Of a stretch of 64,000 nt of DNA, positions 6,012 through 18,400 are shown piece by piece (positions within the stretch are counted from its first letter, which is position 1; each line of letters starts with the position of its first letter). Location: IMG/VR virus record IMGVR_UViG_3300020473_000016; one strand, given 5' to 3'. Made by a program: the position numbers and the translations under genes. A model generated the notes under the pieces. It worked only from the letters and a program-made list of their open reading frames with translations. It did no database searches and was not told the DNA's origin. This stretch comes from a virus.

Positions 6012-6551
6012 TCAAGGAATGAAGTTATAGTTTATTACAAATCTAGGTTTCTGTGTAGGTTTACTACTTGCATGGAATGTTAATCCATCAAATATAACAC
6101 ATCTACCTTTCTTTGGAGAGACAGTCTTATTTATACCGTACTCACCCATAGGATCTCCGTACCTCTTTTCACTGAAGTACGTATCTCCGTCACTGTCATT
6201 TACGTAGTATAAGCATACCATATGATCCTCTGGTATGTCAACATGCATCTGATCATATTCTTTGGTTCTATTACCAGGAGTTTGTAGGAAACACCTTGCT
6301 CGTATAACCTTAGATATACTTTGATCTGCATTGTGACATGCTTCAAATACTAATGGAAGGAACAAACCAGTATAGTCGCTAGTTGATTTACCATCCAACA
6401 AAAGCATATGAGAGAATCCTACTAATTGATCTGATCCATCTTCAACAAGGTTATCATGATACACCCATCTAAAATCAGTATCAAGTCTTAGAGTCTCTTC
6501 AATTAGATTTTGATAGTTTGGGTTAATACAGTCATCAATAATGTTCTTCAT
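6012..6551 (-). CDS. 2OG-Fe(II) oxygenase-like protein
   Basis: HxD (MHVD), distal H (FHASS) and 2OG-binding R (RFVINYN). Confidence 0.8.
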   Translation of the reverse strand: MKNIIDDCINPNYQNLIEETLRLDTDFRWVYHDNLVEDGSDQLVGFSHMLLLDGKSTSDYTGLFLPLVFEACHNADQSISKVIRARCFLQTPGNRTKEYDQMHVDIPEDHMVCLYYVNDSDGDTYFSEKRYGDPMGEYGINKTVSPKKGRCVIFDGLTFHASSKPTQKPRFVINYNFIP

Positions 6552-7152
6552 CAGGACCCTCTACATTCCAAGCAATATTTCCAGACACAGTTGTTCTCTC
6601 CTTATCAGTTGATCTAAATGGATATACAGCATGATTTGTTGTTGATGGGAACATAAGAAGTGTACCGTTCCATGAACTATCTACTGGCAGCACTTCCTTT
6701 TCCAATTGAAACGCTCCATCACTATAAAAATTGTCCCTCTCTTCAGGACCATATGGTATATCAACAAATATCACAAAACTAACAACACCAGAATGAACAT
6801 GCACTGGATTGTATTGATCTTTCTTCTGATAATTCACCCACAAATTATGCAACCTTATGAACCGAGTGATATCCTTTGTCTTATTAAACTCCCATGGACA
6901 TGTGGTATACACCCAATCCCATATTCCATTAACACGATCTAAAAGATATTCTTCTAATCCTGGACATTCATATTTCCATTCACTTAAACTTGATTGTTGA
7001 TCTAGAGCACCAGCCAATCTGGAATTCATATTCCATACCTCATCCAATCTTCTTTTCCTAGTATAATCAAGAAGACTATAGTAGATGTCTTGTGGAAGTT
7101 TCTCTGCTATAAAGTTTAAATTACTTTGACTGTGTATATTACTGTCTTTCAT
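6535..7152 (-). CDS. 2OG-Fe(II) oxygenase-like protein (HxH type)
   Basis: Motifs LWVNYQ..NPVHVHSG, FPSTTNHAVYPF and RTTVSGNI. Confidence 0.82.
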   Translation of the reverse strand: MKDSNIHSQSNLNFIAEKLPQDIYYSLLDYTRKRRLDEVWNMNSRLAGALDQQSSLSEWKYECPGLEEYLLDRVNGIWDWVYTTCPWEFNKTKDITRFIRLHNLWVNYQKKDQYNPVHVHSGVVSFVIFVDIPYGPEERDNFYSDGAFQLEKEVLPVDSSWNGTLLMFPSTTNHAVYPFRSTDKERTTVSGNIAWNVEGPDEEHY

Positions 7153-7646
7153 GAATATAAATCTGCACTTAATGAGTAACGTTTTTCATCTTCCGTTCCT
7201 TTACCTGCCATGTGTGGTAAGTTTGATGGAAATATAAACCATGTAAATAATTTCTTAGGTAGATGGTATGGATCATGATTTGGCATAGGGAACATAGCAG
7301 TTCCAGATGATCCAGGTAATTTTAAATACATTATACCAGATAAGGTATATGGATTTTCCAAATTGTGAGCGTGCATATATGGTTCTTTAGTATTTCCTTT
7401 CCAATCAACATATATCCACGAACTTATTTTATAATCAAATACATTCATATTCCAATATCTAGAACATGAATCGTAATAAGATAATCTAAGTTTTTCAATA
7501 ACTGGAATTTGATAATCTAAAAAGGTATCCTCAGTTTTTGCAACAATAGGATTATCTTGATACTCTGTATTATTAATAAAATTTATAAGAGTATCTACCT
7601 CATCATTATCTAATTGACAAGGATATTCTTTAATACCTAATACCAT
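7149..7646 (-). CDS. 2OG-Fe(II) oxygenase-like protein (HxH type)
   Basis: Motifs HAH...SGIMYL, FPSNLPH and RYSLSAD. Confidence 0.75.
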   Translation of the reverse strand: MVLGIKEYPCQLDNDEVDTLINFINNTEYQDNPIVAKTEDTFLDYQIPVIEKLRLSYYDSCSRYWNMNVFDYKISSWIYVDWKGNTKEPYMHAHNLENPYTLSGIMYLKLPGSSGTAMFPMPNHDPYHLPKKLFTWFIFPSNLPHMAGKGTEDEKRYSLSADLYS

Positions 7647-8236
7647 CGTCTTGATTGTTTACTGTTAATGTGATCATGAATTTCAGGAATACAAAATGAG
7701 AATGCTACTGTAGTTCTATAACCATTACCAATTAAACTATTTGGTGAATGACCTTTGTGTTCCCAATTAGATGGAATGAATACACCAGTGTTAGGAATAT
7801 ACGGTGTATAATGAAGTTTACCATCTGGACTCTTACAAACAAACTCACCACCCCACTCATGATTCCACCGCATTTGATTAAACAATATAAATGTCCATAC
7901 CTCATCTAATGGATAATCTTTATGAAATAATGTATTCTGTCCAGGAGTTTGTCCGTTCGCATGAATCTTACATAACTTCAATGGTTTTTTAAGATGCTTC
8001 ATCATCTTTAATTTAATTGTAGTAGCACATTTTGCAAACATCAAATCTGTTCTTAAAGGATGTTGCCATGATACTGGATCACCTTTACCATAAGATGCAT
8101 TGTTAAGTGTCCATATAGCTAGACTATTTACAGCAGGTTGAGTACGGTCAAAGTATTGCCAAAGACCTTCAAACTCTTCTCTGCTTAAAACAGTTTCAAT
8201 AACAATAGGTTCGTTCATTTGCCCCACCATAACCAT
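7637..8236 (-). CDS. 2OG-Fe(II) oxygenase-like protein
   Basis: Motifs FHKD, WGGEF, IPSNWEHKG and RTTVAF. Confidence 0.8.
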   Translation of the reverse strand: MVMVGQMNEPIVIETVLSREEFEGLWQYFDRTQPAVNSLAIWTLNNASYGKGDPVSWQHPLRTDLMFAKCATTIKLKMMKHLKKPLKLCKIHANGQTPGQNTLFHKDYPLDEVWTFILFNQMRWNHEWGGEFVCKSPDGKLHYTPYIPNTGVFIPSNWEHKGHSPNSLIGNGYRTTVAFSFCIPEIHDHINSKQSRRWY

Positions 8237-8805
8237 CCTGTAATAATATATTTCTCATGTTCCTCTGATATTTGTCCTCTGTGTTTATGAGTTAATCCAG
8301 CAGGAAATAAAACTGTGTTACCTTTCTTTGCTTCTACAGTATAATCCTGATAATAGAATTGAGTTCCTCCATTAGGAACATCATTCAAGTATGTAATAAA
8401 AACAAAAGCTTTATCACAACCATCTAAACCAGATGCATCCACATGCCATGTATAAAAACCTTCACCAGGTTTATAATATTGTATCTGTGGTAACTGTTTC
8501 ATTGTAAACTCTTGGTTTCCAACTTCTAAGGTTTGTAAGTATTCTTGTATAAAACCATCCAATGCTTTTTGATATTCATCATATTTAAAGTCACTAGGTT
8601 TTCCAAACTTTCCAGCATCACTTATAGAGAAATCTGTACTCTTCTTAATATCTGGAATTATACTCCCACCACCAACTCTACCAGCATATGTCATCTCACC
8701 TTTATCAGCTATGTGAAAAAGCTCTATGAGTTTATCACATATACTAGGATCTTCTAATTGATATTCGTTAATAAAATTCATTTGTATGGCGGACCTTGTA
8801 CCCAT
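8215..8805 (-). CDS. Prolyl-4-hydroxylase-like 2OG-Fe(II) oxygenase
   Basis: Motifs QIQYYKPGEGFYTWHVD, YLNDVPNGGTQF, FPAGLTHKHRG and KYIITGW. Confidence 0.87.
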   Translation of the reverse strand: MGTRSAIQMNFINEYQLEDPSICDKLIELFHIADKGEMTYAGRVGGGSIIPDIKKSTDFSISDAGKFGKPSDFKYDEYQKALDGFIQEYLQTLEVGNQEFTMKQLPQIQYYKPGEGFYTWHVDASGLDGCDKAFVFITYLNDVPNGGTQFYYQDYTVEAKKGNTVLFPAGLTHKHRGQISEEHEKYIITGWLWWGK

Positions 8806-9404
8806 CCTACTAAGGATTTTCTACACCCAGAAGTAACTTCTCTTACTCTATGTGGTGTGTCACTCATGAATATTATAGCATCTTTTTTCTTTAATGGAAT
8901 AATCTTCTTCTCATCTATCACCATTTCAAATTCACCACCTTCAAAATCATCATTCAATAGTATAGTAAAACTAATCTTACGTATTCTATTATTCTGTCTC
9001 TTACCTTGCATCCAATTAGATTCATCTATATGCCAATCATAGTAACCACCCTTTTCATATACAGTATCTTGCATAGGTTCTATGAAATCAATATCATAAT
9101 TCCATTCACATTTTTCATTAGCAAATCTAATAAACCCATCTACTAATCCATACAATCGTTCATCATCTATAAAACGAGATTTTGATTCTCTATTTACTAG
9201 ATCAAGTTCTCCTTTATTTTCTAAACCTTCTACCTTAGAAGATTCATAATCATCTATAGGTTTACTTTCACGATCTGTACCTTGACATTTTTTAAGTTGT
9301 CTCTCTATAAGATCAAAATATTCATCTTCCATATTGATGATTATATACTGGTGTTTAAATGAATTCATTTTTGACACACCATTATATGAACACCATTCCA
9401 CCAT
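8778..9404 (-). CDS. PKHD/prolyl-hydroxylase-like 2OG-Fe(II) oxygenase
   Basis: Motifs GGYYDWHID, RKISFTILLNDDFEGGEF and PHRVREVTSGCRKSLVGW. Confidence 0.88.
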   Translation of the reverse strand: MVEWCSYNGVSKMNSFKHQYIIINMEDEYFDLIERQLKKCQGTDRESKPIDDYESSKVEGLENKGELDLVNRESKSRFIDDERLYGLVDGFIRFANEKCEWNYDIDFIEPMQDTVYEKGGYYDWHIDESNWMQGKRQNNRIRKISFTILLNDDFEGGEFEMVIDEKKIIPLKKKDAIIFMSDTPHRVREVTSGCRKSLVGWVQGPPYK

Positions 9405-11113
9405 CCATTAGGATCTTCTGGTATACCAGTTAATATCTTACGATCAAACATAACTTTAAGATCATTTTCTTTAACCCATATATTTGCTGACTCTACTACA
9501 CCCATAAAATTAGCATCATCTATTACTATTATAAACTGATCATCCATAATTGTATAGAGGTATGTTAAATTATCATATTGTTGCTGTGGGTCATGATCAG
9601 CATCATAGAAAATAATATTTGCTTTCTTATTTTCCATAGTATGTTCATCACGAATAATATTAAAATCTGCCTGAGTTAGATCCTGAATACTTTTCTCATG
9701 AAAGACCTGATTCTTTTTCATACCTTTAAAGAATGCACCTTTAGGATTATTCATTTTAAATCCTTTATGTCCATATACTTTACCACCACTATCCCAACTA
9801 TCCTCGTCACGGAATGGAGCAATGTCTTCTTCTGAATAATTATCAACAGCAAACGCTGGTATATCTCTATCCATTGTTGCAGCAAAGAATGTACTGCCAG
9901 CAGCAACACCTAATTCTAAATACACAGCATCTTCTTTGGAACATAAGTTATTCAGAAAATGTCTAATAATATTTGATGATAAACCTTCGTAATTAAATCC
10001 TTCTGGATTAAACTTACTCTCTCCTATTGCAGCCTTATTAATAGAATCGAGAACTAGTTCTATATCCTTATCCATAGTTCTTTCATTCTTCTTCATCCTA
10101 GAATGAATAACTGAATCGCAATAATTACAATCCCAACAATCAAACTTACATGTCTTAATCTTATCTCTCCAGATATCAATGGGTTTCTCTTGTAATGTAG
10201 TATCTTCAATGTATTCATTAAACTGAGGAAATAATAATTCTTCATTAGTATCCCATCTCTTAATGATCTCCATTGATTCCATTAGACGCATAGCATTTTC
10301 TCTACCATGCATCTTGAATACATCAATACCTAAATCAACAAACTCTTCCCAATCTTCTTTCCATGGAGGTAATGCTGCTTGCTTTAAAGCATTAGCTGGA
10401 TCTCTTTCATCCCATCCAGAACATGACACTCTACTAATAGAATCATTAAAATACTGAGGATCATCTTCACCTCTCTCCATGTTGTAATGATAGTGTTCTG
10501 GCATGATCGGACATCCACCCCAACACCATTCATTAGCAAGTAATGATATCTTAACTGGTTTACCTATCTCAGCACAATATTCTTTTGCTTTCTTAATTCT
10601 TAGTAGTTGATCATGATCTCTCATTAGATCACGATCTAAATTAATATAATTAAATCCTGCCTTTGCTAAATTAACTATCTCATTTGCTCTTGTTACTTCT
10701 CTTAGTATAGTATTTTTAATATAGAGTTCTGGAAATTCTTTCTGTATCTGTCCAGTTAACAACCATGTTGTATGAGGTATCGTAGCAATACGAACACCCA
10801 TATCATATACTCCTTTAAAATTCTCAATAAAAAGATCCAAATTCTTTTGATTAGGAAGAACTTGAATATTATTAAATGTTGCTGATAATGGAATACCTGT
10901 TTCTTGAGAAACGTAAAGAGCATTGAATGTTGTCTCTCTCATATCCCCATCAATAGTATCCCCCATTGCGTCTTGAACGAATGGAGGCATTCGACATGTA
11001 AAATATATGTCGTAAATATGTTTCTTATACTGATTCAGGAACGGTATAAAAGTTCCTACTACAAAATCTTCAGGTAATTTTGTATTCAGCGGGATCGAGA
11101 ACCTTTGTACCAT
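9365..11113 (-). CDS. U32-family-like Cys-rich (putative Fe-S) domain fused to a class I SAM-dependent methyltransferase
   Basis: N-terminal part: INLDRD, LLANEWCWGGCP, VFKMHGRE and CKFDCWDCNYC. C-terminal part: YLELGVAAGST, AVDN, IIFYDADH and IIVIDD. Confidence 0.65.
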   Translation of the reverse strand: MVQRFSIPLNTKLPEDFVVGTFIPFLNQYKKHIYDIYFTCRMPPFVQDAMGDTIDGDMRETTFNALYVSQETGIPLSATFNNIQVLPNQKNLDLFIENFKGVYDMGVRIATIPHTTWLLTGQIQKEFPELYIKNTILREVTRANEIVNLAKAGFNYINLDRDLMRDHDQLLRIKKAKEYCAEIGKPVKISLLANEWCWGGCPIMPEHYHYNMERGEDDPQYFNDSISRVSCSGWDERDPANALKQAALPPWKEDWEEFVDLGIDVFKMHGRENAMRLMESMEIIKRWDTNEELLFPQFNEYIEDTTLQEKPIDIWRDKIKTCKFDCWDCNYCDSVIHSRMKKNERTMDKDIELVLDSINKAAIGESKFNPEGFNYEGLSSNIIRHFLNNLCSKEDAVYLELGVAAGSTFFAATMDRDIPAFAVDNYSEEDIAPFRDEDSWDSGGKVYGHKGFKMNNPKGAFFKGMKKNQVFHEKSIQDLTQADFNIIRDEHTMENKKANIIFYDADHDPQQQYDNLTYLYTIMDDQFIIVIDDANFMGVVESANIWVKENDLKVMFDRKILTGIPEDPNGWWNGVHIMVCQK

Positions 11114-11321: not shown

Positions 11322-12200
11322 CTATTTTTCCCCCTCTTTTAAATGTAGCTGTCCTGTATATTTATGTGCTTCAAACTTAGGCATTGTTATACCTTCTGAT
11401 TCTATCTGTGCTTTTATAGCAGGAGCGAATGTTTTATTTAATTTATCCATACCACCACCAACAAGAGCAGAGAATTGTATTGCTACTTCTAAACACTTAA
11501 CTTGATCCTGTTCTGGCATATCCAAAATAGAAGTCATGTTACCAGTACCTATTCTACCATATGATACAATGTCCATAGCAGCCTGTTTACCCATACGAGC
11601 AATCCAGTATATTCTTTCTTCCTCTTCTTGTTCTTCTATGAAATATTCTAAAGGATGCTGTTCATCAATATGTTCATGAACAACTTTCAAGAAATGTGTC
11701 ATTTCTATTTCTGACTGACGTAGTTTTCTTTTCCAAATACCTATGTCATAATCATTCTTTTCTAAATCAATCTGAACAAATCCAGCATCAATTTCATCTC
11801 CACCTTCTTCCTCTATATTATCAAGAGTACGAAGGAATTTCTTTCTTAATAATTCTGCTTTTCTAAGACTATGCCTATTTTCTATATAAGCATGATACCT
11901 AGTTTCTAACTCCATTAATGCCTGACGCACTTTTCTCCATGGAGTCAGTTGCATATCAACAACAAAATGCTGACTTTGATATTCAGTCATACCGCTATTG
12001 AAACGCATACAACCTTCTAAGATATCAAAATCTTCCTTTGAGAAATCAAATTCCTCAACGAAAGACTTAGCTAAACTTATCTCTCCAGTATCAGAACTGA
12101 CTATGTTATTAACATCAGCAATGATATCAGATAATTCTGCGTTATAGGATAATCTAGTTTTCTTTGGATCTCTGTTTGTTAATTCAGAACTTAAAGACAT
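11322..12200 (-). CDS. Hypothetical coiled-coil protein of the putative tail-tip module
   Basis: ORF track; long heptad segment (RQALMELETRY...LRKAELLRKK). Confidence 0.75.
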   Translation of the reverse strand: MSLSSELTNRDPKKTRLSYNAELSDIIADVNNIVSSDTGEISLAKSFVEEFDFSKEDFDILEGCMRFNSGMTEYQSQHFVVDMQLTPWRKVRQALMELETRYHAYIENRHSLRKAELLRKKFLRTLDNIEEEGGDEIDAGFVQIDLEKNDYDIGIWKRKLRQSEIEMTHFLKVVHEHIDEQHPLEYFIEEQEEEERIYWIARMGKQAAMDIVSYGRIGTGNMTSILDMPEQDQVKCLEVAIQFSALVGGGMDKLNKTFAPAIKAQIESEGITMPKFEAHKYTGQLHLKEGEK

Positions 12201-12999
12201 ATGCGTCTACCTCATACTCTGGTTTACGATCCCAGTCAGTATCAGATATAGTGCGACCCATTTCAATTGCTTGCATCTGAGGCATCATAATACCGATGTG
12301 ATCTTCATATAATATATTTAGGTCCCATACAGAATCCGCATTTTCAAACTTCTTCTTAAGTTCTTGATACGTGACAAGCATGGTAGACAGATTATCTTCA
12401 TATTCTTCTGCCTTAGTCAAAATTTTATTAGACAAATCTGTTTTAGTTATACTTCTTTTCTCAGCAAGATAATCAAGGAATGGAGTTTTACTTCCATTAG
12501 CTCCTTTTTCTCTCAACCATTCTCTTGCTTCATGCTTCTGTATTTCCCAAGAAGCAGTTTCTAATTCTGTTGTATCTCTTAAATTTTTAATCCTTACATT
12601 AAACTCATCATCAATAATTTCTATAGCAAAAAGTTTCATGAAATCAGTAATTTCTTTTTTGATTTCATCTGTTAATTCTACTGGTACTTTAAGAACACCG
12701 CCAGCAGGAGTCCATGCTTGAGCAACACCTTGTTGGTTAACAGTTGCCATAACCTTACCATAAGGTCTAACTTCTGAGAAGAAGTTAGATCCATTTAGTG
12801 CTTGCTTTTTGGTAACTTCCTTATACTTATGTTCCCACTCTTTAGAGATAACTTGGAATATATTCTCACTTATTTCTACACATGCGAAATGCATCAACGA
12901 AAATATTTCGTTGTAATGAAGTCTAGAGTCAGCAGTCTCAGCAATATTGACATACTGCTCAGGCTTGATTTCTCTTTCGTTGACGATTAAGTATCTCAT
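12184..12999 (-). CDS. Putative tail-fibre assembly chaperone-like protein
   Basis: Pattern ELETASWEIQKHEAREW...TPFLDYLAEKRS...KILTKAEEY resembles fibre-assembly proteins (recalled similarity only). Confidence 0.5.
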   Translation of the reverse strand: MRYLIVNEREIKPEQYVNIAETADSRLHYNEIFSLMHFACVEISENIFQVISKEWEHKYKEVTKKQALNGSNFFSEVRPYGKVMATVNQQGVAQAWTPAGGVLKVPVELTDEIKKEITDFMKLFAIEIIDDEFNVRIKNLRDTTELETASWEIQKHEAREWLREKGANGSKTPFLDYLAEKRSITKTDLSNKILTKAEEYEDNLSTMLVTYQELKKKFENADSVWDLNILYEDHIGIMMPQMQAIEMGRTISDTDWDRKPEYEVDAYVFKF

Positions 13000-13002
13000 T
13001 GT

Positions 13003-14289
13003 TTATTGTGCGTATCTAGCTGTAACAGATGCTGCTGCTGAACAGCAACCACCTGATGATTGTCCATAATGTCCTTTGGGTCTTGTTGTTGCACCCATAT
13101 TAGTCTCAACGTCAGTTGAATAATCCCACTTAGTAGTATGGTTGTTCTGCTGACCGTCATATTGTCCCATCATATAACCCCAGTCCTGACCCATCATCAT
13201 GTTCTCTTCTCCGTAAGAACGAACCTTAGATCCATTCTTAATACCAGATCCTGAAGAACCATTGTACTTAGTCCAAGGAGTTGTAACGTTGTTACCAGTA
13301 CCACAGTAGAAGTGACCCCACTTAGAAGGTAGCGGTTTACAAACTCCATCAGGAGCAGCAGATGAAGACCAGTTACCCCAACTATCGTTAGAATGATCAC
13401 AGTAATATCTGTTACCTGAGAATGAAGCCCATGTTCTATCTTCATCAGCACATGAAGCAGTATGATCATTACCAGAAGGTGAGTTACCTGCCTGATACAT
13501 GATCTCTGAAGGGAAGTGTAACTTACCTACAGCAGAGTTACCTCCACCCAAGTTGTATCCATGCTGTTGTTTTTGTGCAGATGCACATGAGTTTCTGTCT
13601 CTGTTAACAGGCATGTTCCAACCACCAACAGTACCATAACCCATGATTCCTCTTGGGTCATCTCCTTCCCAACCGTAGTTGTGAGGTGAATATGTACCAC
13701 CACCAGGGTTACTACCTGATGTACCAAACATTCGTCTCATTCCAGTATGGAGGTTGATCGAAGATGTATGGTTTGATGATCCAGTGAATGCGTTAACACA
13801 TCCATGACCATACCCAAAGTAATCACTCCAAGTAACGTCAGCATATGTTAGTGCTCTATCAATTTGCTCACCACAGTAGAAAGTAACGTCTGTAGCGTGC
13901 CAAGTTTTGTTTACTGTTCTCCAAGGATTAGATCCTTTATATCCAGCAACCAAGTAACCATGTGTAATTAAACTTCTGTATCTAAATCCTGTTAAGGGTG
14001 AAGAAACAGCATTGTTCATACCAGGATAAGCCCAGAAAGTTCCGTTCTCTCCATCAGATACCAGATAAGCACCCCTTGTCTCATTAGTTGCTCCTGGTAC
14101 ACCACCTCCTACGTCATCCCATTCAGAACCATTCCAAATCTGTGCTTTCGCATCACTAGAGTTCCAAATCATCTGACCTATATTAGGAGATGCAGGTCTA
14201 CTGCCACTGGCAAAAGACGGCAACTTCAAACCTTGAGTCTGAAGTGACGCATTACCTGTAACAACAGTTCCAACTGTTAATTGAGACAT
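13003..14289 (-). CDS. Putative beta-propeller (Kelch-like) virion or tail-tip protein
   Basis: The N-terminus resembles fibre proteins (RPASPNIGQMIWNS...QIWNGSEW). It is followed by about 45-aa Gly/aromatic blade-like repeats (HGYLVAGY, HGYNLGGG, WGYMMGQY). Confidence 0.55.
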   Translation of the reverse strand: MSQLTVGTVVTGNASLQTQGLKLPSFASGSRPASPNIGQMIWNSSDAKAQIWNGSEWDDVGGGVPGATNETRGAYLVSDGENGTFWAYPGMNNAVSSPLTGFRYRSLITHGYLVAGYKGSNPWRTVNKTWHATDVTFYCGEQIDRALTYADVTWSDYFGYGHGCVNAFTGSSNHTSSINLHTGMRRMFGTSGSNPGGGTYSPHNYGWEGDDPRGIMGYGTVGGWNMPVNRDRNSCASAQKQQHGYNLGGGNSAVGKLHFPSEIMYQAGNSPSGNDHTASCADEDRTWASFSGNRYYCDHSNDSWGNWSSSAAPDGVCKPLPSKWGHFYCGTGNNVTTPWTKYNGSSGSGIKNGSKVRSYGEENMMMGQDWGYMMGQYDGQQNNHTTKWDYSTDVETNMGATTRPKGHYGQSSGGCCSAAASVTARYAQ

Positions 14290-14666: not shown

Positions 14667-15422
14667 TTAGGTATACTCCCATACTATTACGCAACCAGCA
14701 CCGCCGTTGCCGTTGTTATGTGCATGTCCATTTTGTGAATAATATCCATAAGCACCACCAGAACCCCATTGTCCATGAGTACTTTCAGCACCATCACTTG
14801 AGTTATGATGGTTTGATCCTGCCTTATGCCAGAATGTAGATCCACTACAACCTTCTCTGTTGGAACCGTGTGACATTTCACCAGGTCCGCCAGGTAAGTT
14901 TATATCTCCACCAGAAGCATCTCCTCCTCTTCCACCTTCATATGGGTTATCTGTGTAACCACCAGCACCACCAGAAGCAGTACAATATGAACCAAAAGAT
15001 GAAGATCCTCCTGAACCTCCACGTCCACCATTTCTAGCATATCCACCTCCACCACCATATGTGTAGTTGACACTGTTTACACTAGAAACATCAATATATT
15101 TAATTGCAGTAGCACCACCGCCACCACCAGCACCACGATAGTTATTGTCATTACAACGACAACCACCGCCTCCACCAGTGACGTAAACTAATACATGACC
15201 GCAACCAGCTGGTTTTGTCCACGTACCAGATCCACCAGAGGTTGATCTAGATGACCATGATCCATTCTGTGATGTATATACTTGAATGCCAATTAAAGCA
15301 CCAGGTGTTGTCATCGCAGAATAACTACTGCCATTCCATATTCTTAATTCATCGTTTTGCAGATCCATTATATTAACTCCTGCGGAGTTTTGGATCTGGT
15401 CTACTTTTAATATTCCAGCCAT
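14667..15422 (-). CDS. Glycine-rich tail-fibre accessory protein
   Basis: Motifs ALIGIQVYT, GTWTKPAGC..VLVYVTGGGGG and GGAGCVIVWEY. Confidence 0.7.
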   Translation of the reverse strand: MAGILKVDQIQNSAGVNIMDLQNDELRIWNGSSYSAMTTPGALIGIQVYTSQNGSWSSRSTSGGSGTWTKPAGCGHVLVYVTGGGGGCRCNDNNYRGAGGGGGATAIKYIDVSSVNSVNYTYGGGGGYARNGGRGGSGGSSSFGSYCTASGGAGGYTDNPYEGGRGGDASGGDINLPGGPGEMSHGSNREGCSGSTFWHKAGSNHHNSSDGAESTHGQWGSGGAYGYYSQNGHAHNNGNGGAGCVIVWEYT

Positions 15423-15431
15423 TTTATTTCC

Positions 15432-18400
15432 TTATACGATAGCCCAGTTACCACCACTATTTATAGTGACTGTATAACCGTTTGCAATTGTCATTGGACC
15501 TGCACTAACGCAGTTGACGTTAGCAGGTATAGTGACGTTTTCAGAGACTGTGTTTCTGTTAGACTTAAAGATTCCATAAGTATCAATCCACATTTGGTCT
15601 CCGTTAACATAACCAATTCCTCTGAAGTTAGCAGTACCACCAACATCTAATGTGTATGATGGGTTTGCCTGATTGATACCAACCTTAGACATTCTATGAA
15701 TGTCAGTTCCGTTAGAAGATTCTGTCCAACGTGAAGTAACAAACTCAGCATTGTTCTGGAAGAACTGACCGTTAAGGTTCATATCACCTTGTACGGTTAA
15801 CTGATAAGTTCTATTTGTATTGTTGTTTGGATCAGTACCAGAGTTTGTAGTAGTGTTAATAGAAACTCTATTGTTACTACCATCAACAGCAATTGCTGGT
15901 GTAGTATTCCAAGTTGTTCCACCGTTGTCAGTAGATGCTTGGATTGCAAAGTAATGATTACCTACTGTCTGGTTACTAACTCTGAAGTTTCTATAAGAAG
16001 AAGAACCACGTAAGTTTATTCTTGCACCAGAGTTATCATCATCCTGATCAATGTTAAGTGTACCAGTAATCATTGCAGTACCAGCAACTTCTAATGCGAA
16101 GTCTGGTTCACGGTTAATACCAACACCTAAGTTTCTAGATGCAATAATATCACCAACAACACGGAACGCTAATTCTGATTCAGTACCTTCTACTGTGAAA
16201 GTATTTCCATACTCACTGTTAGGTGATTGTGAATCTGAATGATTGTATCTAATAGTACCAACTTGAGAGAAGTCAGAAACATCTGTAAATCTAATTCTTG
16301 CACCTGTAGCAGGAGCATTGGTTGCTGATTTAAGTAATATACCTTCATCACTGCGAATATCTAGAGCAGCAGAAGGAGAAGTACCTACGTTAATACCAAC
16401 TCTATTAGCACTCGCATCAACGAATAGAACTCCAGCATCAACATTTAAGTCATTACTTAGAGTTGTAATACCAGTAACACCAACTGTACCACCAACAGTT
16501 AAGTTGGAAGATGCACCAGCAAGTGCCAATGAACCAGTCATGGTATCACCAGTCTTCAATACGTTAAGTGATGCAGCACCTGATAATGTACCAGTAATAG
16601 TACCAGCAGAGAAGTTACCTGAACCATCTCTCTTAACAGCAGTATCAGCAATGTTATTAACTTGGAATACAATGTTACCTGCGTTCCATACAGTAGAACC
16701 ATTAACTTCTAAACCATCAGCATTAGCAACTTTAACTTCTAATGTACCAGAACCATCAGTTGTAGTACCACCAGCAGCAATCAAAGCAACGTTATAGTTT
16801 GATGCAGCAGATGCAGAAGAGTTGAAGTAAACAGCAGGACTAGATGCCTGACCATCCTTTCTACCAAGTCTTAGTTTTGCAGTACCAGAATCACTCTCAA
16901 GTCTAGTTACCTCGAAGGTGTTATCATCTTCAATAGTGAAGTCTTGGAATGGAACTCTGTTACTTGCAGTACCAATTGTTAGAGCACCAGTAAAGTTACC
17001 AGAAGTTAATCTACCAATTAGAATACTGTAATCATTGAAATTATCATTAACGTCATCGTTAATAGTAATAGCATCAATTGTGAAACTACCAACTGCCTGT
17101 GCGTTAGCATTGTATAGGTTGACTGGGTTACCTGGTGTGAATGGTGAACTGTTAAGGATTAAACCTTGTACATAGATCTGATACTTAGCATCACCATTAA
17201 ATGTCTTGACTACTAATCTATCTTGATAAGATCTAGGACTAATGAATCCTGGTAGTCTGTTATCAGACATAATACCAGAGTTCAAGTTGTAAGCATTCTG
17301 ATACCAATCACCTTGTCTATTATCTAATCTGTCAGCATCAAGATCTGAATCTACACCATCGTTAAGTGATGTCCAAACCTTACCCCATGAACCGAATGTA
17401 GAAACACCTGTACCAGAACCTCTGATCCACATGTTGTCATTGTCTGTAAATGCAAGTTGTCTAATACCACCGTAAGTAGCATCGAAACCAGAACCACCAT
17501 TTCTGATAGTCATTACTAGGTTTCTAGTACCACCGTCTGAAAGACTGTTAGCACTGTTGAATACTGTGTTAGCGATAACACCTTCAACGAAGTTGTTTGG
17601 AGCAGGGTTTGATGTAGGGTTGTTAGTACCTGTTATCAAACGAATTGTATTCTGAGATGAACCAGAAATACTAATGTTATATGTACCAGATAATCTATCA
17701 GTTGGTAATGTACCAGCGTTCTGGTTACCAGAGTTTAGATAGAACGCACCTTGAGCACCATCAAGAAGGTCAGCATCTAATCCACTGTCAGCACCAGTCT
17801 TAAGTACAACAGAACCATTACCTGCTAAACCAATATCAAATTGTGATTTCTTATATCTAGAAACACCAATTGTACCGTAGAGGTCAGCAGAAATTGTTTG
17901 ATCTGTAACTCTCTGAACGTCAATAGCAACGTTAGCATACTGTCTGTTAACAGTACTTACTTTAGCTTCTAATACTAGACCAGATCCAGTACCTATTTGT
18001 GTTGGAGCAACTGTAATTGAGAAGTCAGCACTATATCCTGTACCACCGTTGGTTACAGTTACATCACTTACTGCGTTACCAGATACAACTATATTTGCTT
18101 TTAGTTCAGTACCAGATCCACCTGTTAGTGGTATATCATAGTATTGACCATTAGTGTATCCAGAACCAGCATTAGAAATAATAACGTCATCAACGAAGTT
18201 ACCTTGAGTATATGTTGACTCGAAGGTTACTGGAGAAGCACCCCTTTCAAATTCAATAATAGTACCAGAAGCAATCGTCTGGTTAACTGGGTTGTTAATT
18301 GAAACTGTGGTTAATCCACCAGCAGTTACAATACCTGTAATATTTGTGTTTGCCTGTATTCCATTAACAGTGTTCTTAACTTCATGACCAATCAGAGCAT

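Follow-up and report, generated by a model that had tools for sequence, protein, structure and literature searches.

What reaction might be carried out by a phage protein that joins a U32-like barrel to a methyltransferase in a single chain? We addressed this question for the gene T4-GC354 (hereafter GC354), which lies on the minus strand of a 64,000-nucleotide stretch of DNA (the window) from the IMG/VR virus record IMGVR_UViG_3300020473_000016. The gene content of the window is that of a T4-like cyanomyovirus, and its GC content averages ~37% (range 32-43%). An initial annotation, made from the letters of this DNA, had described the product as a U32-like Fe-S protein fused to an S-adenosylmethionine (SAM) methyltransferase, and had proposed that it hydroxylates and then methylates a substrate. 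Our analysis leads to a reading to which we assign a probability of about 0.55: by analogy with characterized enzymes, GC354 would be a two-domain tailoring enzyme in which the U32-type barrel hydroxylates and the O-methyltransferase caps, working with the product of the neighboring gene GC353.

Fold and conserved residues of the two domains

GC354 is a single uninterrupted open reading frame (ORF), at 9365-11113 on the minus strand, that encodes 582 amino acids from an ATG at 11113, with the stop codon within these coordinates. All of the motifs quoted in the initial annotation were located in this one intact frame. Residues 1-50 are conserved and make up barrel strand 1, and the long start at 11113 is therefore the correct start of GC354. 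The annotated S-CAM4 coding sequence (L002 8136-9719, C440309_103) and the PHROG 1458 profile start ~45-50 residues late, so that both miss the conserved first strand of the barrel (FSIPLN), a segment found in all homologs, stand-alone forms included. The features of the gene, with the evidence for each, are as follows.

9365-11113, minus strand: whole gene T4-GC354 / PHROG 1458, U32-like domain and O-methyltransferase (ORF translation; PHROG 1458 E 1e-226)
10079-11113, minus strand: N-terminal domain, residues 1-345, predicted (beta/alpha)8 barrel of the U32 superfamily with a C-terminal Cys4 extension (AlphaFold2 predicted local distance difference test (pLDDT) 90; 5d88 Z 16.3; hhalign 93%)
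10508-10537, minus strand: ANEWCWGGCP, residues 193-202, directly after barrel strand 7, with E195, C197 and C201 (CX3C), invariant in alignment A1
10421-10495, minus strand: H207 to C231, the remaining conserved candidate ligands in the strand 7-8 insert (H207 95%, C231 97%)
10298-10318, minus strand: FKMHGRE, residues 266-272, strand 8 motif with K267, G270 and R271 (kept 96-97%; paired with KIEGR by hhalign)
10118-10150, minus strand: CKFDCWDCNYC, residues 322-332, CX3CX2CX2C, candidate second metal or Fe-S site (100% of 74-76 representatives)
9368-10078, minus strand: C-terminal domain, residues 346-582, predicted class I metal-dependent-type O-methyltransferase (AlphaFold2 pLDDT 89; fold matches; weak Methyltransf_24)
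9890-9922, minus strand: YLELGVAAGST, residues 398-408, putative SAM-binding motif I after Rossmann strand 1 (E400, G402 and G406 invariant in alignment A2)
9509-9610, minus strand: FYDADHD (residues 502-508, after strand 4) and VIDDAN (residues 530-535, after strand 5), with candidate metal ligands D504, D532, D533 and N535, invariant in A2

The AlphaFold2 model of the N-terminal domain, built from a 38-sequence alignment (pLDDT 90, predicted template modeling score 0.89), contains eight beta strands alternating with helices. We compared it with 48,161 PDB representative chains using VIA-align. The top match was the U32 protein Mk0906 (5d88), characterized by a Z score of 16.3 and a root-mean-square deviation of 3.1 over 225 of 247 residues. 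To our knowledge, Mk0906 is the only solved U32 structure. The runner-up family was MTHFR, at Z 13.3-13.5, and flavin, F420 and glycosidase barrels tailed off near 12. This order was unchanged among the top 1000 Foldseek chains, and 5d88 also gave the best Foldseek TM-score (0.67). Thus, the fold search places the N-terminal half among U32-like TIM barrels, as the initial annotation had anticipated. In a viral structure library, the closest entry outside the GC354 family was a 'Peptidase' of Escherichia phage OLB35. As other identities for the domain we considered barrels of the radical-SAM, flavin/F420 and glycosidase types; the fold searches singled out none of them (Z 13.5 or less, or unlisted). 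Radical-SAM structures were missing from the top 50 fold matches, an absence that is not decisive, and the radical-SAM-like CX3CX2C string of the protein, at residues 322-329, sits after the barrel and is accompanied by a fourth invariant cysteine.

We characterized the relatedness to U32 proteins further via profile comparison. A broad profile of 74 representatives (50% clustering; 20-57% identity to the window protein; effective number of sequences 6.0) was aligned by hhalign to a set of 45 U32 barrel domains, consisting of E. coli UbiU, UbiV, TrhP and RlhA together with Pseudomonadota sequences. The match had a probability of 93% (E 3.4e-7, score 57.4) over 254 colinear columns, running from residues 20-292 of the query to 14-317 of TrhP. 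It sets FKMHGR opposite KIEGR, the U32 motif to which the initial annotation had likened it. Among the controls run with -M first, reversed profiles gave 0.3-0.4%, a real MTHFR profile gave 14% (score 30.7) and U32 against MTHFR gave 4%, whilst ten block-shuffled U32 alignments run with -M 50 gave 1-5% (scores 22-27). In the ESM Atlas, the clusters nearest to the N-terminal domain of a fused homolog (P0509) were named 'Peptidase U32 (Fragment)' or contained 20% PF01136 members (scores 0.96-0.97), and the automatic UniProt name of the Ralstonia-phage homologs is 'Peptidase'. Taken together, the model and the alignments indicate that the N-terminal domain belongs to the U32 superfamily, as a highly divergent member beyond Pfam PF01136. 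What stands of its earlier description as U32-like is the TIM barrel, the best match to Mk0906 and a profile signal of 93% against 14% or less in the controls; the domain does not fall within PF01136 and its cysteine spacing is different.

The conservation of the motifs across the 74 representatives indicates that they are not chance occurrences. C197, C201 and C231 are kept in 97%, H207 in 95% and E195 in 89% of these sequences; K267, G270 and R271 are kept in 96-97%, and H269 in only 36%. The four cysteines after the barrel (C322, C326, C329 and C332) are kept in 100% of 74-76 representatives. C197 and C201 come right after strand 7, and C231 is in the insert ahead of strand 8; U32 proteins have their cluster ligands at this point of the topology. 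U32 proteins ligate a 4Fe-4S cluster through cysteines of this region, in the motif CX6CX15CX3/4C; the ligands in UbiU are C169, C176, C193 and C232 (10.1101/587956). The seven cysteines and one histidine of GC354 would suit two four-ligand sites.

The C-terminal domain was modeled as a Rossmann class I methyltransferase (pLDDT 89). Its top VIA matches were a Desulfuromonas O-methyltransferase (8c9v, Z 17.4), a Mycobacterium tuberculosis O-methyltransferase (5x7f, 16.1) and B. subtilis TrmR (5zw3, 16.0). Further matches included COMT/CCoAOMT-type enzymes, the sugar O-methyltransferases SpnH and MycF, and some RNA methyltransferases, with Foldseek E-values of ~1e-6 to 1e-7. TrmR (5zw3, Z 16.0; 8k1f, Z 14.3) and the small-molecule O-methyltransferases are tied within ~1.4 Z. 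Many homologs match Methyltransf_24 (PF13578; best E 1.1e-8), and JGI labels some of them 'predicted O-methyltransferase YrrM'. We found no sequence-level match to this domain in the PDB and obtained no residue-level alignment to a solved O-methyltransferase. The invariant residues are E400, G402 and G406 in motif I, D424 after strand 2, Y503, D504 and H507 after strand 4, and D532, D533 and N535 after strand 5. In metal-dependent O-methyltransferases, the Mg2+ ligands follow strands 4 and 5. The metal ligands of TrmR are D133, D159 and N160 (PMC6158493). The class I methyltransferase fold given in the initial annotation holds, with TrmR in the top three matches and motif I and the acidic residues invariant. 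On the model, the domain has the fold of a class I SAM O-methyltransferase of the catechol/TrmR/Methyltransf_24 type and, by analogy, is probably metal-dependent.

Partner genes, distribution and relatives

GC354 belongs to a series of minus-strand genes that overlap or abut one another. Its surroundings in the window contain the following features.

11322-12200, minus strand: GC353 (292 amino acids, phrog_1409), conserved upstream partner, directly upstream of the U32-like gene in Ralstonia phage RP31, in L121 (jumbo-phage-like) and in L123 (a third lineage)
12184-12999, minus strand: GC352 (271 amino acids, phrog_1604), second, less constant companion, with relatives nearby in L121 and L123
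11070-11321, minus strand: orf83 (83 amino acids), between GC353 and GC354, overlapping the GC354 start by 44 nucleotides (ORF listing)
13003-14289, minus strand: GC351 (428 amino acids, 'sericin-like', phrog_1417), fiber-like first gene of the cyanophage cassette (PHROG, synteny)
14667-15422, minus strand: Gly-rich tail-fiber-type ORF heading the tightly packed run (phrog_863 match)
15458-15465, minus strand: late-promoter-like site (T4-type), TATAAATA, 36 nucleotides upstream of the Gly-rich ORF
6012-9404, minus strand: six 2-oxoglutarate (2OG)-Fe(II) oxygenase genes directly downstream of GC354, in this phage only (Pfam and PHROG matches)

GC353 is the constant companion of the U32-like gene and does not figure in the initial annotation. 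A tblastn search with GC353 returned 123 phage records, whose organism tally was identical to that of the U32-like gene, and the two genes occur together in 123 of 123 cyanophage records and also in Ralstonia jumbo phages. The homologs in RP31, L121 and L123 occupy the same directly upstream position. A hidden Markov model of GC353 detected no fusion to the U32-like domain among 149 representatives, and no GC353 relatives were found beside the distant GC354 homologs. ESM Atlas scores for GC353 were below 0.9 and uninformative. In cyanophages, GC351-352-353-354 form a syntenic cassette; GC351 was not found near the U32-like gene in the non-cyanophage lineages examined. The intervening orf83 has no family match and no counterpart in P-HM2 and Syn19, where GC353 overlaps GC354 directly. 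GC351, annotated as 'sericin 1 precursor-like', contains 16 Trp and 9 Cys residues and is a candidate fiber protein of the cassette; its N-terminal ~60 residues match the N-terminal part of phrog_1325 and phrog_2415 (function unknown).

From the arrangement of these genes, GC354 appears to be expressed with late, tail-fiber-type genes. We found no convincing terminator inside the gene run and no tRNA genes in the window. The T4-type late-promoter-like motif occurs at 4 sites in the window against ~8 expected, and is thus not enriched. The initial annotation had placed the fusion alongside O2-dependent hydroxylases. The six 2OG-Fe(II) oxygenase genes are indeed present here, but the neighborhood differs in S-CAM4, P-HM2 and Syn19 and is not a conserved feature. 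Two members of this stretch, at 6012-6551 (minus strand) and 7637-8236 (minus strand), match PHROG 274 'DNA endonuclease V' (E 2e-39 and 3e-17), whereas Pfam gives weak 2OG-FeII_Oxy_3 matches. Because of this conflict, the cyanophage 'denV' label (T4-GC100, e.g. Syn19_047 next to GC354) may be a mislabeled 2OG oxygenase family.

To describe the distribution of the family, we searched phage records, protein families and metagenomes. The GC354 protein belongs to phrog_1458 (unknown function, E 1e-226), and the N-terminal domain alone to phrog_36869. A tblastn search returned 126 phage records, comprising 123 Synechococcus/Prochlorococcus myoviruses (48-57% identity) and 3 Ralstonia jumbo-phage records; the version in Ralstonia phage RP31 is a 346-amino acid protein made of the N-terminal domain only. 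Candidates scored from public genomes and metagenomes fall into 1,961 clusters at 90% identity, and a HMMER scan of 1.8 billion representatives gave 644 family matches at E<=1e-3. There was no NCBIfam match to the GC354 protein, and PDB sequence searches with the single protein and with profiles of alignments A1, A2 and A4 returned nothing meaningful. GenBank annotates the P-HM2 and Syn19 orthologs as 'hypothetical protein, T4-like GC 354'. T4-GC354 is listed as hypothetical, without comment, in 5 of 16 cyanomyovirus genomes (Sullivan et al. 2010, PMC3037559), and none of the proteome matches that we found for three cyanophages of that study concerned GC354. Literature searches on U32 with phage or cyanophage, and on the locus tags and accessions of the P-HM2 and Syn19 orthologs, found no paper on the family.

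Homologs with other architectures place the barrel in a variety of contexts. Thirteen extra segments of more than 100 amino acids occur among the 149 representatives, and in at least nine the segment is the methyltransferase. In a singleton, P0242 (L159 235-1896), DUF7483 (E 1e-51) replaces the methyltransferase; this is a metagenomic 1986-bp contig and may be a chimeric assembly. A distant 428-amino acid relative, P0312 (L118 3-4488; L119), is encoded downstream of Gly_rich_2 and phrog_1787-type genes and upstream of a Trp halogenase gene (E 6e-105). This order echoes that of the window, where a Gly-rich gene and orf116 (phrog_1787) are followed by the U32-like gene. The context of P0183 contains a Peptidase_S74 fiber-chaperone domain. 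In a distant clade of ~325 amino acids (L127 536-3113; L128 850-3398), the gene runs into one or two downstream radical-SAM genes (CX3CX2C), stop and start codons overlapping; L127 additionally carries a Methyltransf_11/23/25 gene after the radical-SAM gene, and the locus of this clade looks like a tailoring cluster. The stand-alone distant homolog P0356 is encoded in an operon of overlapping genes that also holds a radical-SAM and a methyltransferase gene. In Ralstonia-type jumbo phages (L001 7019-8059; L121 8029-9090), the stand-alone form of the gene extends over the start of a DUF401/CitMHS-like membrane-protein gene (phrog_14035). L121 also has NrdD, NrdG and two dCTP-deaminase/dUTPase-type genes within a few kb, and in RP31 a single putative dCTP deaminase gene (ORF131) lies close by.

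Proposed reaction and its alternatives

From the folds, homology signals, residue conservation and gene linkage described above, we infer metal binding, the chemistry, the order of the two steps and a role for the partner as follows. By analogy with RlhA, TrhP and UbiU/UbiV, the first domain would carry Fe-S (one cluster or two, or a single cluster together with Zn) and would place a hydroxyl on an aromatic or heteroaromatic carbon independently of O2. The oxygen donor would probably be prephenate, which has been proposed to serve U32 proteins in this way (PMC10990095). The second domain would then use SAM to methylate the new hydroxyl, for a net conversion of C-H to C-OCH3, and the enzyme most likely acts with the product of the adjacent upstream gene, GC353. 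There are precedents for such coupling: the B. subtilis yrrM-yrrN-yrrO operon couples U32 proteins with TrmR, and TrhO-TrmR fusions exist (PMC6599085). We count the operon of P0356 described above as a further precedent.

Several observations weigh against this reading. We place the N-terminal domain outside the Pfam family because PF01136 gave no match to the window protein at E<=1, and among relatives 0 of 20 matched at E<=0.01 and 1 of 76 matched weakly (E 0.033). The hhalign signal to U32 reached significance only with the broad 74-sequence profile. It fell to 60% (score 40.6) with -M 50 and to 4-8% when the narrow 38-sequence profile was compared with the four E. coli U32 paralogs or with the 45 U32 domains, and global mode produced a meaningless 4-column alignment. 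The ligand spacing in GC354 is CX3C-x29-C plus H207, and the U32 spacing CX6CX15CX3/4C is absent; UbiU and UbiV likewise deviate from the canonical U32 spacing (10.1101/587956). The pairing with U32 cysteines is also ambiguous, in that hhalign puts C197 and C201 on the last U32 CX3C whereas the strand register puts C197 on the first cysteine. In the second domain, the sole Pfam match of GC354 is a sub-threshold one to Methyltransf_24 (E 0.0077, 17.5 bits against a cut-off of 26.3), and D504, D532, D533 and N535 are candidate metal ligands assigned only by their positions in the sequence and model. The protein is acidic, with an isoelectric point (pI) of 4.9 for the whole chain, 4.6 for the methyltransferase domain and 4.6-5.1 for both domains, which speaks weakly against a nucleic-acid substrate and not against the chemistry. 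The Ralstonia-type homologs are without a methyltransferase, and the 3' end of their U32-like gene is overlapped by the DUF401/CitMHS-like membrane-protein gene; methylation is therefore not intrinsic to the U32-like family. Finally, direct hydroxylation by RlhA or TrhP was undemonstrated, with in vitro assays awaited, as of 2024 (PMC10990095).

Three alternatives keep the two domains but assign them another target or another reaction, and we regard each as unlikely. The first directs the enzyme to the virion: GC354 and its partner or partners would modify aromatic residues of a fiber or virion protein from the same late run, such as GC351 or the Gly-rich fiber proteins, or of the partner itself. 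The gene neighborhood speaks for it, since the run is tightly packed and headed by a Gly-rich tail-fiber-type gene with a late-promoter-like site, GC351-352-353-354 are syntenic in cyanophages, and GC351 is rich in Trp (16) and Cys (9). The placement of P0312 between Gly_rich_2 and phrog_1787-type genes and the Trp halogenase gene, the Peptidase_S74 domain near P0183 and the DUF7483 domain in place of the methyltransferase in the singleton are consistent with it as well. However, the Ralstonia-type phages have neither GC351 nor Gly-rich genes nearby, and only phrog_1409, sometimes with phrog_1604, is constant. Insertion of phage accessory genes among structural ones is often a matter of timing only, proteins are not known substrates of any U32 protein, and the late-promoter motif is not enriched (4 sites against ~8).

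The second alternative, to which we attach a similarly low probability, is that GC354 is a phage equivalent of TrhP/RlhA plus TrmR, which makes 5-hydroxy- and then 5-methoxy-pyrimidines and retunes decoding for an AT-rich phage genome. Its products would be 5-methoxyuridine at position 34 (mo5U34) in tRNA, or methoxy-C or methoxy-U in rRNA. The characterized RNA-acting U32 proteins hydroxylate C5 of U34 or C2501, and those of B. subtilis share an operon with TrmR (PMC6599085). The rank of TrmR in the top three C-terminal fold matches (Z 16.0), the YrrM label given to homologs by JGI and the GC content of the window (~37%, 32-43%) agree with this. Against it, TrmR is tied with the small-molecule O-methyltransferases 8c9v and 5x7f. 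The C-terminal domain belongs to Methyltransf_24, whereas TrmR presumably belongs to another Pfam family, Methyltransf_3. Both domains are acidic (pI 4.6-5.1), the window is without a tRNA gene, and the conserved neighbors are tail-fiber-type and unknown helical proteins rather than translation genes. Cyanobacteria are also reported to carry cmoA, suggesting the uridine 5-oxyacetic acid (cmo5U) branch (PMC6599085).

In the third, the first domain is not a hydroxylase. The barrel would bind metal for a Zn-structural role, for radical or redox chemistry (through the CX3CX2C module) or for sugar or nucleotide chemistry, and the methyltransferase would act on a pre-existing hydroxyl of a sugar (as MycF, TylF and SpnH do), a nucleotide or a DNA base. 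The position of the family outside Pfam U32, its different cysteine pattern, the sugar O-methyltransferases SpnH and MycF among the C-terminal fold matches and the many glycosidase and flavin barrels at Z 11-13 would agree with such a function. So would the NrdD, NrdG and dCTP-deaminase/dUTPase genes and the transporter-like protein of the Ralstonia-type contexts, and the radical-SAM genes that adjoin distant relatives. The comparison with U32 proteins makes this doubtful: U32 stands ~3 Z units above every other barrel family and is the only family with a significant profile match, and the Cys-rich insert and K-x-x-G-R lie at the same topological places as in U32. The lack of radical-SAM structures in the top 50 fold matches points the same way, if not decisively.

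Returning to the hydroxylation and O-methylation that we favor, an RNA pyrimidine as the target fits the precedent of the family and does not fit the acidic surface or the neighbors, whilst a virion or partner protein fits the neighbors and is without enzymatic precedent. DNA, nucleotide or small-molecule substrates are possible. A more far-reaching proposal, which we advance tentatively and consider less probable than the tailoring enzyme itself, is a self-contained phage 'methoxylase'. It would comprise a new U32 branch with an eight-ligand metal architecture and a helper protein, performing O2-independent hydroxylation and O-methylation of a macromolecule new to U32 enzymes. Candidate targets of this 'methoxylase' are an aromatic residue of the virion fiber or partner protein, or a base of the phage DNA.

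Relation to known enzymes and significance

GC354 resembles the U32 proteins (RlhA; TrhP/YegQ, including B. subtilis TrhP1/TrhP2; UbiU/UbiV; Mk0906) in its barrel, in the Cys-rich insert between strands 7 and 8 and in the K-x-x-G-R motif of strand 8. Its CX3C pair resembles the last two U32 cysteines, and the profiles share ~254 colinear columns. As in UbiU-UbiV and TrhP1-TrhP2, it most likely works with a partner protein. Unlike these proteins, GC354 has no PF01136 match and shows ~9-13% identity to them; it has the ligand pattern CX3C-x29-C with a conserved His, and an extra invariant CX3CX2CX2C after the barrel. It is also phage-encoded and fused to an O-methyltransferase, and its partner is an unrelated helical phrog_1409 protein and not a U32 paralog. 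Thus, relative to the known U32 proteins, GC354 is new in its position outside the family model, its ligand pattern and Cys4 module, its O-methyltransferase fusion, its non-U32 partner and its phage-borne state.

Another close parallel is B. subtilis yrrM-yrrN-yrrO (TrmR with TrhP2/TrhP1), which converts tRNA U34 to 5-hydroxyuridine (ho5U) and then to mo5U, and likewise couples a U32-type protein to a catechol-type O-methyltransferase. The TrhO-TrmR fusions of some eukaryotes are a precedent for joining hydroxylase and methyltransferase (PMC6599085). GC354 differs from yrrM-yrrN-yrrO in having both parts fused in a single polypeptide, with acidic domains and a Methyltransf_24-type methyltransferase that carries DxDH and DD motifs; no evidence of an RNA substrate was found. 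Its C-terminal domain resembles COMT/CCoAOMT types (8c9v, 5x7f) and TylF/MycF/SpnH in the Rossmann fold (Z 15-17.4) and the Gly-rich motif I. Judged by position in the sequence and model, it may further resemble metal-dependent O-methyltransferases in the acidic residue ending strand 2 and in the acidic residues after strands 4 and 5, which is the place of their Mg2+. It departs from those enzymes in an N-terminal helical linker with an invariant GLS/T-S, in WWNG near the C-terminus and in an inserted low-confidence loop at residues 440-446.

U32 proteins are emerging as O2-independent hydroxylases with prephenate as the oxygen donor, and most subfamilies are without a known substrate. The GC354 family is abundant, with members in 123 sequenced cyanomyoviruses and ~2,000 clusters at 90% identity, and it extends the U32 superfamily past the reach of Pfam. 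Its fusion to an O-methyltransferase and its constant partner predict a methoxy outcome from a compact two-gene system. If the 'methoxylase' proposal is true, a defined role would be assigned for the first time to a viral U32-type enzyme, and GC354, with its product trapped as a stable methoxy group, would be a convenient system for the in vitro reconstitution of U32 chemistry. Should GC354 be only a small-molecule tailoring enzyme, it would still offer a useful handle on that chemistry. If the target is a virion protein, phage DNA or host RNA, it would represent a new phage-directed chemical modification in the ocean's dominant phototroph-virus system.

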